A stretch of 10,588 bases of DNA, taken from IMG/VR virus record IMGVR_UViG_2690316175_000006. The stretch is one strand, 5' to 3'. The position numbers and the translations under genes were made by a program. This DNA comes from a virus (lineage: Duplodnaviria > Heunggongvirae > Uroviricota > Caudoviricetes). Positions 2,689 through 6,587 of this stretch are shown piece by piece. The stretch's first letter is position 1. Every line of letters starts with the position of its first letter. The notes under the pieces were generated by a model. It searched no databases. It had not been told where the DNA came from and saw only the letters and a program-made list of their open reading frames with translations.

Positions 2689-2867
2689 AGGAAACAAAAC
2701 AGAAACAGCAATTGCCGTTACCTGTTGTTACCATGGCAAGTAAACGTATCTCAGGCGAGCGCATTGCGCCGTTCTGACGCAGATAAACTAGCCTGGATAG
2801 ATGGTGCTGGCAATAAAAAATAGCGTTTTCTTATCGGTGTCGGTAAGATTGCTGCGGGTGCTTGAGG

Positions 2868-2903
2868 CTGTCTGCCTCGGGTATGTCACTGTAAGGCAGA
2901 CAG
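2868..2903 (+). promoter_or_regulatory. hok leader stem-loop (perfect 10-bp stem), copy 2
   Basis: ctgtctgcct pairs with aggcagacag; covaries with the copy 1 stem. Confidence 0.45.
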
Positions 2904-2967
2904 AGAAAAGCCCCAGTTAACATTACGCGTCCTGCAAGACGCTTAACATTAATCTGAGGCCCAATCT

Positions 2968-3180
2968 ATGTCTCACAAATGTAGGTTAGCCTCTTACGTG
3001 CCGAAAGGCAAGGAGAAGCAGGCTATGAAGCAGCAAAAGGCGATGTTAATCGCCCTGATCGTCATCTGTTTAACCGTCATAGTGACGGCACTGGTAACGA
3101 GGAAAGACCTCTGCGAGGTACGAATTCGAACCGGCCAGACGGAGGTCGCTGTCTTCACAGCTTACGAACCTGAGGAGTAA
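2968..3180 (+). CDS. mok: Mok-like leader ORF in frame with hok (70 aa), copy 2
   Basis: Same architecture as 1000-1212; codons 2-5 differ (SHKC vs NGKS). Confidence 0.45.
   Translation: MSHKCRLASYVPKGKEKQAMKQQKAMLIALIVICLTVIVTALVTRKDLCEVRIRTGQTEVAVFTAYEPEE
3025..3180 (+). CDS. hok: Hok/Gef-family type I toxin, 51 aa, copy 2
   Basis: ORF identical to 1057-1212. Confidence 0.85.
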   Translation: MKQQKAMLIALIVICLTVIVTALVTRKDLCEVRIRTGQTEVAVFTAYEPEE

Positions 3181-4816: not shown

Positions 4817-5197
4817 ATGACCGAGCGCATAGAATTTGTTTTACCTTACCCGCCGACGGTGAACACTTACTGGCGTCGTCGTGGCAGCACATATTTTGTA
4901 TCAAAAGCCGGGGAGCGTTATCGCCGGGCAGTGGCGCTTATTGTTCGCCAGCAGCGGCTGAAATTAAGCCTGTCCGGAAGGTTGGCAATAAAAATTATTG
5001 CAGAACCACCGGATAAGCGCCGCCGTGACCTGGACAATATTCTGAAAGCGCCGCTGGATGCGCTGACGCATGCGGGGTTGCTAATGGACGATGAGCAGTT
5101 TGATGAAATCAATATCGTTCGTGGTCAGCCAGTATCTGGTGGACGTCTGGGGGTGAAGATTTATCCCATAATGCTTGAAGGGCAGGTCAAAAAATGA
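4817..5197 (+). CDS. rusA: Crossover junction endodeoxyribonuclease RusA (Holliday junction resolvase)
   Basis: 126 aa with YPPTVNTYW and PDKRRRDLDN motifs matching the RusA catalytic region; stop overlaps the next start (ATGA). Confidence 0.85.
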   Translation: MTERIEFVLPYPPTVNTYWRRRGSTYFVSKAGERYRRAVALIVRQQRLKLSLSGRLAIKIIAEPPDKRRRDLDNILKAPLDALTHAGLLMDDEQFDEINIVRGQPVSGGRLGVKIYPIMLEGQVKK

Positions 5198-6015
5198 AAC
5201 TGGAAGATTTACCGAAATACTACTCCCCAAAATCCCCCGGCCTGACTGATGCATCGGCCTCAACGTCGAAAGATGCGCTGAGTATCACTGATGTGATGGC
5301 CGCGCAGGGCATGACACAGAATCGGGCTGAGATGGGGGTTTCTGCGTTCCTTGGGAAAATGGGCATTAGTATGAATGACAGAGAGCGGGCAACAGAATTG
5401 CTGACAGAATATGCACTCAGTCGGTGTGATCGCGTGGCGGCGTTAAGAAAACTCCCGGCAGAAATAAAACCGGCAGTGATGCGTATTATGGCTTCGTATG
5501 CGTTTGAAGATTATGCCCGTAGCGCGGCGAGCAAAAAACAGTGCCCCTGCTGTCACGGAAAAAAATTTATTGAAAGCGAGGTTTTTACAAACAAGATCCA
5601 GTATCCGGATGGTAAGCCGCCGGTATGGGCAAAGTGTACGAAAGGTGTGTATCCGTCTTACTGGGAAGAATGGAAAAAAGTCAGGGAGGTGGTAAAAGTT
5701 GCCTGTCCGGAGTGTGGCGGAAAGGGTGAGGTTTCCACCGCCTGTAAGGATTGCCGTGGGCGTGGTGTCGCCATTCATCGTGAAGAGTCGGTAAAACGTG
5801 GTATGCCTGTTATCAGAGACTGCCAGCGTTGTGGTGGTCGTGGCTATGAAAGACTACCATCAACGGAGGCATTTAATGCTATATGCGAGGTGACAAACCA
5901 GATAACACGCGCGTCATGGGAAAAAACAGTTAAGAAATTTTATGATGCGCTGGTGACCCGGTTTGATATTGAAGAAGCATGGGCTGAGCGGCAGTTAAAA
6001 AAGGTAACTAGGTAA
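5194..6015 (+). CDS. Late-gene antiterminator Q-like protein (QuuQ-like) with four CxxCxGxG zinc-finger repeats
   Basis: Position directly after rusA and directly before a promoter-terminator pair; CPCCHGKK, CPECGGKG, CKDCRGRG, CQRCGGRG motifs. Confidence 0.55.
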   Translation: MKLEDLPKYYSPKSPGLTDASASTSKDALSITDVMAAQGMTQNRAEMGVSAFLGKMGISMNDRERATELLTEYALSRCDRVAALRKLPAEIKPAVMRIMASYAFEDYARSAASKKQCPCCHGKKFIESEVFTNKIQYPDGKPPVWAKCTKGVYPSYWEEWKKVREVVKVACPECGGKGEVSTACKDCRGRGVAIHREESVKRGMPVIRDCQRCGGRGYERLPSTEAFNAICEVTNQITRASWEKTVKKFYDALVTRFDIEEAWAERQLKKVTR

Positions 6016-6020
6016 CAAGG

Positions 6021-6048
6021 TTGATTTTTCCGGAATCTGTGGTAAATT
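6021..6048 (+). promoter_or_regulatory. PR'-like late promoter
   Basis: TTGATT-16 nt-TAAATT, 6 bp after the Q-like stop; GGTAAATT resembles the lambda PR' -10 region as recalled. Confidence 0.5.
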
Positions 6049-6054
6049 CGTCAT

Positions 6055-6120
6055 AACTATGGGCGTTTTATGCCTGACGTTAGAAGAGTTTCTACAACCC
6101 GCCGCCGAGCGGGTTTTTTA
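6055..6120 (+). ncRNA. Short PR'-to-tR' transcript (about 66 nt), candidate small RNA
   Basis: Inferred from the promoter at 6021-6048 and terminator at 6097-6120; analogous to lambda 6S-type RNA. Confidence 0.35.
6097..6120 (+). terminator. tR'-like rho-independent terminator
   Basis: acccgc-cgccga-gcgggt hairpin followed by a T-run. Confidence 0.65.
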
Positions 6121-6239
6121 TGACTGAAATCGCGTCAGTACAGTAAACGCGCTGGTGGCGGTGAATACCTGTCTTTCAGCTTGCTGGCTTTTTCGACAAG
6201 AGTTATTGGTGTGTCACGTTAACCGGAAAAGGAAAAGAC

Positions 6240-6437
6240 ATGCTAAAACAGCAGGATATGACAGAAACCGCCAGAGTGGTGTTTAATGAATTAAGCGTTA
6301 CCGAACCGGCGACAGTCGGGGAGATAGCGCAGAATACTTACCTTTCACGCGAACGCTGCCAGTTAATACTGACCCAGCTGGTTATGGCGGGTCTGGCAGA
6401 CTATCAGTTCGGTTGTTACAGACGCCTTCCGCAGTGA
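6240..6437 (+). CDS. Small (65 aa) putative helix-turn-helix DNA-binding protein
   Basis: AAGGA RBS 7 nt upstream; segment ATVGEIAQNTYLSRERCQLILTQLVMAGLA looks like a winged-helix HTH. Confidence 0.45.
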   Translation: MLKQQDMTETARVVFNELSVTEPATVGEIAQNTYLSRERCQLILTQLVMAGLADYQFGCYRRLPQ

Positions 6438-6447
6438 AGGCTTTTTT
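6424..6447 (+). terminator. Rho-independent terminator overlapping the stop of the 6240 ORF
   Basis: gccttc-cgcagt-gaaggc hairpin followed by TTTTTT. Confidence 0.5.
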
Positions 6448-6464
6448 ATTTGTGGTAAATGGGC

Positions 6465-6495
6465 GGCTGGTGGGTGTTAGGGGCACCCACCAGCC
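6465..6495. promoter_or_regulatory. 12-bp stem-loop (7-nt loop) between the HTH ORF and the methyltransferase
   Basis: ggctggtgggtg pairs with cacccaccagcc; no T-run follows, so not an obvious terminator. Confidence 0.35.
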
Positions 6496-6587
6496 ATCTG
6501 CTCATGCGTTGGGTTCACAAGCAAACCTCAGGCCCACTGCTTTGCGCAAAAGCAGAATGAGCCTATCAGAGACAGGCTTAATGATCC

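Follow-up and report, generated by a model that had tools for sequence, protein, structure and literature searches.

Whether the DNA of phage progeny withstands restriction in the next host is decided by orphan phage methyltransferases, which can also reprogramme host gene expression. To our knowledge, restraint of phage methylase expression is known in detail only for mom of phage Mu. There, a late DNA-modification gene is under post-transcriptional control, an RNA structure occupies its translation start and a small regulatory gene, com, lies directly upstream. In restriction-modification systems of the C.PvuII and C.AhdI type, small controller (C) proteins of helix-turn-helix (HTH) type are encoded immediately 5′ of the modification gene, with a palindrome nearby. 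Further relevant systems are the pR′-tR′ short transcript (6S RNA, StxS) and Q of lambda and the Stx phages, and the RNase III hairpins in the polycistronic RNAs of T7 and lambda. Here, we analyse a window of 10,588 nucleotides (the whole stretch of IMG/VR record IMGVR_UViG_2690316175_000006, Caudoviricetes), the late-regulatory region of a lambdoid Escherichia coli prophage. We focus on a conserved structured leader RNA of about 140 nucleotides (6449-6590, plus strand), which ends at the AUG of an orphan DNA methyltransferase gene, and on the gene for a 65-amino-acid (aa) protein upstream of it. As a defined RNA element with clear helices, the leader offers a testable handle on methylase timing.

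The genes are ordered as Q, a pR′-like promoter, a tR′-like terminator, the 65-aa open reading frame (ORF), the methyltransferase and four transfer RNA (tRNA) genes. The Q antiterminator gene occupies positions 5194-6015 (PF03589 match). The methyltransferase (6588-7646, plus strand) is of the beta-class N6-adenine type. It matches PF01555 (E 7.9e-42), has a DPPY motif (TDPPY, encoded at about 6689-6703 as read from the sequence), is recognized by PADLOC as MTase_II (540 bits) and has M.RsrI and CcrM as relatives in the PDB. PADLOC made no defence-system assignment besides ‘MTase_II’, and tRNA genes, not a nuclease gene, follow on the 3′ side. The methylase AUG lacks a Shine-Dalgarno sequence. 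Family members are found in mEp460, SfV, N15, phiKO2, VHML and in Vibrio and Aeromonas phages, and the VHML enzyme has been linked to Vibrio virulence (PMC5454434). An initial annotation of this region had listed the small ORF, two terminators, a stem-loop and a near-palindrome; all of them are present, with coordinates exact or within 1-2 nt.

Judging from fold and covariation, the spacer in front of the methylase is a single structured RNA of about 140 nt, encoded on the plus strand and organized in two domains. The best structure has 40 pairs in four helices. The first domain is an interrupted hairpin, P0/P1 (6459-6505, plus strand), of about 19 bp: P0 pairs 6459-6464 with 6500-6505, P1 pairs 6465-6476 with 6484-6495, and a bulge CAUC (6496-6499) lies on the 3′ side. 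The upper part, P1, is the 12-bp stem which the initial annotation had noticed at 6465-6495; its inverted repeat is perfect, the loop measures 7 nt and a T-run is lacking. Not one of 200 mononucleotide shuffles of the window contained a perfect 12-bp inverted repeat with a loop of 3-10 nt. The window itself has three, the other two lying at 2655-2690 and 9832-9865. The second domain is closed by P5 (6512-6587, plus strand), a long-range helix in which 6512-6522 pairs with 6576-6587 and which ends 1 nt 5′ of the methylase ATG. P5 encloses the P3x/P3 hairpin (6531-6563, plus strand), in which P3x pairs 6531-6537 with 6557-6563 and P3 pairs 6537-6543 with 6549-6555. The 7-bp arms of P3 account for the near-palindrome, which had been placed at 6538-6556. 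Stem-loop and near-palindrome were at first taken for separate elements; they now appear as parts of one leader, whose long-range helix had passed unnoticed.

Thermodynamic predictions agree with a structured element. The 186-nt RNA 6415-6600 folds with -72.7 kcal/mol (z = -3.9 versus dinucleotide shuffles), the inner P5 pairs reach probabilities of 0.76-0.89 in the window fold, and the methylase AUG is paired in the minimum-free-energy fold. For 50 of 68 leaders, the fold of minimum free energy corresponds to the P0/P1 conformer. Covariance models R1 and R2 score the leader at 132.0 and 132.4 bits, respectively, and find a single copy in the window. Rfam 15 has no family match in 6122-6590 at gathering thresholds; relaxing the limit to E values up to 10 produced only chance hairpin matches, such as P26 on the minus strand (24 bits versus 36). 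No description of the leader was found in Rfam or in the searchable literature.

The pairing is strongly supported by covariation. For the narrow alignment, a covariance model was built, 68 leaders were realigned and explicit structures were tested; P0, P5 and P3x were absent from the model R1 which produced this alignment. In total, 90.0% of the cells pair, versus 31-46% with slid partners, and the covariation score is 0.220 versus at most 0.102 in controls, a value reached by none of 500 shuffles. In a broad set of 74 distinct leaders, which also covers Vibrio phages and phages of N15-like and VHML-like type, the paired fraction of cells is 86.5% (slid controls 33-42%), 32 of the 40 pairs show compensatory changes and the score rises to 0.439 (controls at most 0.104). 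P1 occurs in 44 distinct sequence variants, all foldable, such as GACUGUAAAAGUG/CACCUUUACAGUC in Proteus, and compensatory pairs number 8 of 12 in the narrow and 11 of 12 in the broad set. P5 is paired in 89.3% of cells, with AAGC:GCUU, GGAC:GUUC and GGGC:GCCC variants in different clades and compensatory changes at 10 of 10 pairs in the broad set. P3x/P3 is 86.8% paired; its outer pair switches from G-C to A-U, the outermost P3 pair switches from U-A to C-G, and all six P3 pairs counted in the broad set are compensatory. P0, which is 98.8% paired, changes through G-U wobbles only, and these are permitted on the plus strand alone. The U-G and G-U intermediates of the leader stems are likewise acceptable only on that strand. 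Moreover, the spacer is better conserved than both flanking proteins, whose identities fall to 41% and 59%. Covariation of the hairpins and conservation of the ORF in related phages, the two points on which the initial annotation had staked its reading, are thus both found.

Some candidate pairings were set aside. A three-way junction proposed by RNAalifold and used to build R1 combines a pairing a:d (6460-6464/6532-6536) with a pairing b:c and is less well supported. Compatibility with a:d is 100%, but this pairing hardly varies; P0 and P3x account equally well for its single double change (locus L033), and b:c is only 72% paired. The junction is a possible alternative conformer. P4b (AUCAG/CUGAU) is paired in 81% of cells and overlaps the better-supported P5. 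P4a (AGCCU/AGGCU, 6560-6578), which was called as a minus-strand terminator in the scan, is only partially conserved and has a probability of 0.11 in the window. An all-versus-all search for column covariation on alignment A3 was uninterpretable, as differences between clades dominated it. At the start of the coding region, ACUGU (6597-6601, ACTGT in methylase codons 4-5) is invariant at synonymous positions in 46 diverse sequences, which suggests an RNA- or DNA-level constraint. In the window fold this segment pairs with 6449-6457 through many G-U pairs.

The leader covaries, and its last helix reaches up to the start codon of the methylase; the most reasonable reading is therefore that it controls methylase expression. 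Specifically, we favour, with a probability of roughly 0.6, a cis-acting control of translation initiation through P5, exerted on a transcript which reaches the methylase only by Q antitermination. P5 joins the 12 nt immediately 5′ of the methylase AUG to a segment lying about 65 nt further upstream. Because the methylase lacks a Shine-Dalgarno sequence and its AUG stands at the foot of P5, the leader would gate the downstream translation start: it would set or gate initiation at whichever ORF comes next, that is, the methylase in the window and a Mu-Com-like zinc-ribbon gene preceding the methylase in Vibrio phages. The tR′-like terminator and, in the E. coli lineage, the terminator at 6424-6447 would hold back transcripts which are not antiterminated. 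The methylase would be made only from Q-modified late transcription and only to the extent permitted by the leader. Such a late-limited synthesis would suit an enzyme which marks progeny DNA late and is possibly harmful earlier. The initial annotation had proposed control of either late read-through or methylase expression, and the second half of this suggestion is the one which the covarying leader at the start codon favours. Control of read-through is disfavoured: in no lineage does a U-run follow the 12-bp stem, and the 3′ end of the element is in every case at a start codon.

Several observations weigh against the proposed gating. In the window, the outer part of P5 contains a U-U mismatch and has low pair probabilities (0.01-0.3), and the AGCCU/AGGCU hairpin at 6560-6578 competes locally. 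The a-arm can alternatively pair with GCCCA at 6532-6536, an option which is 100% compatible across the sequences, and the leader may not have a unique fold. Since the tested structure served to fit the broad alignment (A7), the pair counts of this alignment are inflated, and the slid controls correct for this only in part. Much of the variation lies between a few clades, and the cell counts therefore overstate the number of independent compensatory events. Just 5′ of the leader, many lineages have a weak extended -10-like motif, TGTGAAAAT, and a DNA-level role for this part of the leader region is conceivable. Finally, we infer translational gating from geometry only, and Q dependence and any trans-acting factor are likewise presumptive.

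The alternative partners of the a-arm also bear on a riboswitch-like role, in which binding of S-adenosylmethionine (SAM), S-adenosylhomocysteine (SAH) or another metabolite would shift the partner of the a-arm and open or close P5. Such a sensor would fit a multi-helix element of about 140 nt whose joining segments are nearly invariant across bacterial orders, which lies 5′ of a SAM-dependent enzyme and which is not accompanied by any one trans-factor gene in all loci. Two partners that exclude each other are available to the UGGGC arm, each with a compatibility of about 100%. However, none of the known SAM or SAH classes gives a match, even when E values up to 10 are allowed, the b:c pairing needed for the switch is the one that is poorly paired (72%), and the sole double change for a:d, that of L033, fits P0 and P3x equally well. 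In addition, phage late genes are usually timed by transcription and not by metabolites. We consider this role quite improbable.

In its genomic distribution, the leader is tied to the methylase. Among loci found via the ORF, the methylase starts 131-156 nt after the ORF stop codon in 323 of 346 cases (exactly 150 nt in 220), and most exceptions are contig ends. In mEp460, N15, phiKO2, VHML and Vibrio ST2-1pr, the covariance model locates the leader immediately upstream of the methylase gene. It is also present in 49 of the 75 IMG/VR loci fetched with the VHML methylase and in 53 of the 58 fetched with the N15 methylase. Neither phiO18P nor the Mu com-mom region gave a match to the model. In the loci with matches, the leader is always on the plus strand and always ends at a start codon. 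At least seven loci have the arrangement Q-leader-methylase, with leaders of 94-112 bits, and no winged-helix ORF, and the 65-aa ORF is therefore regarded as a frequent companion of the leader and not as an obligate partner. Taken together, these arrangements argue that the leader is a cis element of the methylase (or com-methylase) unit, with the winged-helix gene as a frequent but dispensable neighbour.

In a few loci the cargo has been exchanged. Locus L260 (2510-3243) retains the ORF and, of the leader, the 5′ half, and its methylase is replaced by a 136-aa membrane-like ORF. In phiSTEC1575-Stx2k (L347, 2982-3695) the cargo is a 237-aa HTH protein, with the junction at window position 6511, and in PhiR5_1 (L346) the junction lies inside P1, at window position 6477.

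The Vibrio loci connect the cassette with the Mu system. In all 10 of the Vibrio-type loci, the leader AUG opens a 36-48-aa ORF encoding a Mu-Com-like zinc ribbon (PF10122, 26.2 bits versus a cut-off of 22.9; 47% identity to the N-terminus of Mu Com). It lies at 1328-1438 in L354 and at about 1317-1463 in L358-L366 and L372, and is followed by AGGAGG, a Shine-Dalgarno sequence, and then by the methylase. In phage ST2-1pr the Com-like ORF is unannotated. An ORF of 82 aa, unrelated to the 65-aa family (hhalign detected no relationship), precedes the leader in these loci. The locus in the window thus resembles com-mom in having a late DNA-modification gene which is putatively under post-transcriptional control, an RNA structure at its translation start and a small candidate regulatory gene directly upstream, and its Vibrio relatives carry a true Com-like zinc-ribbon ORF between leader and methylase. 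In contrast to Mu, the window has no Com-like small ORF, the 65-aa protein is a predicted winged helix without the Cys4 site of a CxxC...CxxC zinc ribbon, and the enzyme is a PF01555 methyltransferase and not Mom. Furthermore, the leader lies upstream of the Com-like gene and is not the known target hairpin of Com. We infer that the element belongs with the structured leaders that control DNA-modification genes of phages, for which Mu com-mom is the paradigm.

A broader reading is that the leader is the founding example of an undescribed and widespread class of cis-regulatory RNAs, each a translational gate opened by a specific signal. We put this forward tentatively, at slightly less than even odds. 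The class would be found at the head of the late operon of temperate phages of Enterobacterales, Vibrionales and Aeromonadales, in front of orphan methyltransferases and Com-methyltransferase pairs. The signal opening the gate could be the linked winged-helix or Com-like protein, a terminating ribosome, RNase III or a small ligand.

The phages N15 and phiKO2 carry a related arrangement in their gp51-gp52 region. Their methylases belong to the same family (56-60% identity), the same leader is found (38-54 bits), and gp51 is a distant homologue of the 65-aa protein (hhalign probability of 87.5% for N15 gp51 against the 65-aa family). They differ from the window in the position of the late promoter and terminator, which are found 3′ of the winged-helix gene and 5′ of the leader rather than upstream of both. 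The sequence of P1 is completely different there, yet it still pairs. The annotated start of N15 gene 52 (L349, 1501-1735) is at 1735; methylase homology and the leader AUG point to 1501, and the deposited coding sequence appears to be truncated by 78 codons. A search of the literature on phiP27 L23, on the late promoter and methylase of N15 and phiKO2 and on prophage methylomes found no functional study. The ORF-methylase gene pair is widely annotated and is mentioned only descriptively (PMC8456039).

The 65-aa gene (6240-6437, plus strand) starts with ATG and belongs to phrog_331 (E 1.4e-37 over residues 1-64), a family without functional assignment. The good ribosome-binding site previously noticed is AGGA at 6230-6233, 6 nt 5′ of the ATG as read from the sequence. 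The protein has 334 close homologues, and since only 85 cluster representatives are present among 1.84 billion proteins, the family is narrow. Among species-representative genomes, 34 loci extend from Escherichia to Proteus, Providencia and Plesiomonas, with identities down to 41%. The segment RCQLILTQL-MAGL, which forms helix 3, is invariant and the rest of the protein is divergent. Within RCQLILTQL, the leucines use five to six different synonymous codons. Compared with Salmonella, the non-synonymous divergence (dN) of the ORF is 0.09 and the synonymous divergence (dS) is saturated, a saturation which makes dN/dS of distant pairs unusable. The invariant segment with its varied leucine codons, together with low dN and saturated dS, argues for selection at the protein level. 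These patterns mark the ORF as a genuine gene, whose conservation extends from Escherichia to Plesiomonas.

The HTH-like segment noted at first proves to be a predicted winged helix of MarR/TrmB/IclR-like fold. The AlphaFold2 model has a mean confidence (predicted local distance difference test, pLDDT) of 87.4 and shows three helices (residues 4-17, 26-33 and 37-49) followed by a β-hairpin wing (strands 53-56 and 59-62). Foldseek retrieves winged-helix domains of IclR, MarR, SelB and O-methyltransferases, with template modelling scores (TM-scores) of up to 0.82 for the IclR N-terminal domains. The profile search proposed in the initial annotation does return winged-helix families, namely TrmB, MarR_2, DprA_WH and HTH_24, but all of them below the Pfam thresholds (for TrmB, PF01978, 18.0 bits versus a cut-off of 25.6). 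The best NCBIfam match has 12.4 bits versus a cut-off of 90, and the PDB sequence search yielded no meaningful match. In databases, the ORF is annotated as ‘hypothetical protein’ or ‘TrmB family transcriptional regulator’, TrmB being the name assigned by PGAP. Given the sub-threshold Pfam and NCBIfam matches, ‘TrmB family’ is a label at the level of the fold and not a statement of membership; for loci whose ORF now bears this name, the leader provides a model for annotation. The protein contains two cysteines, one of them unconserved.

A winged helix next to a modification gene could be a trans-acting regulator of the cassette, which binds either the leader RNA or the palindromic P3 DNA and switches the methylase on or off. 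The RNA-binding form would be akin to Com on mom messenger RNA (mRNA) or to the winged helices of SelB on the selenocysteine insertion sequence (SECIS), and the RNA-binding SelB domains are among the Foldseek matches. The DNA-binding form would act on a C-protein-like operator, and the centre of P3 is indeed palindromic in each lineage (AGCGCT, TGCGCA, GTGCAC, ACGCGT). A trans-acting role would also suit the fixed spacing of ORF and methylase in 323 of 346 loci, the invariance of helix 3 amid a diverging remainder, the homologue gp51 upstream of the same leader in N15 and phiKO2, and the retention of the ORF with half a leader in L260 despite its replaced downstream gene. However, strong leaders persist without the ORF in the seven or more Q-leader-methylase loci, and in Vibrio the upstream position is taken by the unrelated 82-aa ORF. 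The family is weakly acidic (median net charge -1, isoelectric point 5.6), which is unusual for a nucleic-acid binder of 65 aa, and its Pfam winged-helix matches are all sub-threshold. The spacing of the P3 arms differs by 1 nt between lineages, a change which an RNA hairpin tolerates better than a dimer operator. Overall, we regard trans-regulation by this protein as rather unlikely. The parallel with C proteins is limited to the small HTH-type protein 5′ of a modification gene and the palindrome nearby. C proteins have an Xre-type HTH (PF01381), whereas the 65-aa protein has no HTH_3 match. They accompany a restriction gene, whereas here tRNA genes follow the methylase. The spacer is a covarying RNA structure and not a C-box, and the small gene is dispensable in some relatives. 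As regards a single operator common to P3 and the region 5′ of the ORF, this candidate was rejected, as the words CTGS...SCAGAGT are spaced differently (14 versus 17 nt).

Cis control of the methylase through the leader is compatible with a further role of its first domain. P0/P1 could serve as an RNase III processing or stability site which splits the upstream mRNA from the methylase mRNA, and cleavage would remodel the methylase start region. With about 19 bp and a 4-nt asymmetric bulge, it presumably resembles the R-sites of T7 and the N-leader site of lambda, which are intercistronic duplexes of about 20 bp with an asymmetric internal bulge in phage polycistronic RNA. The duplex is long, nearly perfect and of conserved length (P1 11-14 bp, P0 6-7 bp), the 3′ bulge CAUY is invariant, variation in the lower stem is confined to changes which preserve pairing, and the element lies between two cistrons of a phage late transcript. 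Yet the hairpin is kept where no close upstream cistron exists, as in the Q-leader-methylase and N15 arrangements. Moreover, unlike the T7 and lambda hairpins, the leader continues into a second domain which reaches the start codon, and P5 and P3 would be left unexplained. We consider processing by RNase III unlikely.

The position of the cassette is reminiscent of the late region of lambda and the Stx phages. It starts right after Q, with a pR′-like late promoter (6021-6048, plus strand) and a tR′-like intrinsic terminator (6096-6121, plus strand; stem 6096-6115, then TTTTTT). The difference is that leader and ORF lie downstream of tR′ and are neither the short terminated transcript nor a qut site. 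The promoter, read from the sequence as TTGATT and TAAATT with a 16-nt spacer containing TG, is assigned by its position immediately 3′ of Q; it matches the consensus at 8 of 12 positions and was not called in the consensus promoter scan. The segment 6020-6121 is 97% identical to unannotated DNA of mEp460-like phages, which share only this stretch. A sharp mosaic joint lies at 6096, the 5′ foot of tR′. As phages with unrelated Q genes (phiP27, Stx2a and Stx2d phages) have common sequence only and exactly from 6096 onward, tR′ marks the start, and thus the left edge, of a shared mosaic module. In Stx phages, the position after Q, pR′ and tR′ has been described as the site at which morons are inserted (PMC7547250, PMC4104026). 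The identical gene order recurs in Stx2 phages, phiP27 and thousands of E. coli chromosomes, and stx lies directly downstream of the cassette in many Stx2 phages. A 581-nt query comprising pR′, tR′, the 65-aa ORF and the leader matches 3109 of 5426 complete E. coli genomes (1760 at 80% or more of the query), and the cassette is present in more than half of them.

As had been annotated, the ORF lies between tR′ and a terminator of its own. The latter (6424-6447, plus strand) overlaps the ORF stop codon and consists of a 6-bp stem with four GC pairs (6424-6441), followed by TTTTTTAT with TTTTTT at 6442-6447. In the interval 5900-6700, four terminator-like sites were counted, versus 1.0 +/- 1.0 in shuffles. 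The stem covaries within Enterobacteriaceae. Of 47 representatives, 17 keep a terminator-like hairpin plus U-rich tail, another 13 retain a hairpin whose tail is poor, and the remaining 17 lack a hairpin altogether. The terminator, although real, thus appears to be lineage-specific. The lineages without the hairpin are Morganellaceae. There, the ORF stop codon is only 0-9 nt from P0, and a terminating ribosome could therefore open P0. On the other side of the ORF, a conserved element (6180-6217, plus strand; CTTGCTG-N13-CAGAGTTAYNTGT) is shared by 47 representatives from Escherichia to Plesiomonas. It does not fit the sigma-70 consensus and contains a small CUGN/N′CAG hairpin with some compensatory changes.

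These boundaries would suit an independent, prophage-expressed moron: tR′ and the terminator bracket the ORF in E. coli and the conserved element precedes it. The structure would then be an incidental 5′ untranslated region (UTR), or a DNA-level promoter or operator of the methylase. A 10-mer, TGTGGTAAAT, occurs both in the extended -10 region of pR′ (6038-6047) and just 5′ of the leader (6451-6460), a duplication found in 0 of 200 shuffles. In other lineages the second site reads TGTGAAAAT, which resembles an extended -10; the site could be a promoter, a pause-like element or part of the RNA. However, the consensus scan detected no sigma-70-like promoter in 5900-6700, and in GGTAAT, the variant most frequent in E. 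coli, the critical -11 A is missing. A promoter within the spacer, at TGTGAAAAT or TGTGGTAAAT, was rejected as a candidate for these two reasons. In addition, the terminator is absent in a third of the lineages, and covariation with one-strand G-U intermediates indicates selection at the RNA level across the whole spacer. We therefore hold the moron reading to be very improbable.

Lastly, the window contains other features of note. Two hok/sok-like toxin-antitoxin loci lie about 2 kb apart (887-1062 and 2856-3030; Rfam sok, RF01794, 112 and 118 bits), each sok match overlapping a copy of a duplicated 70-aa ORF (1000-1212 and 2968-3180). The four tRNA genes (7687-8075) have the anticodons CAT, TCG, TCT and TCT. 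A masked run of 47 N (7943-7989) separates the two tRNA-Arg(TCT) copies, and single N are found at 1435 and 9658. On the 3′ side of the tRNA genes, two copies of the small RNA STnc100 (RF02076) are located at 8152-8341 and 9621-9809 (123.6 and 81.6 bits), in a region corresponding to the moron and convergent small-RNA zone described for prophages of enterohaemorrhagic E. coli (PMC4104026).

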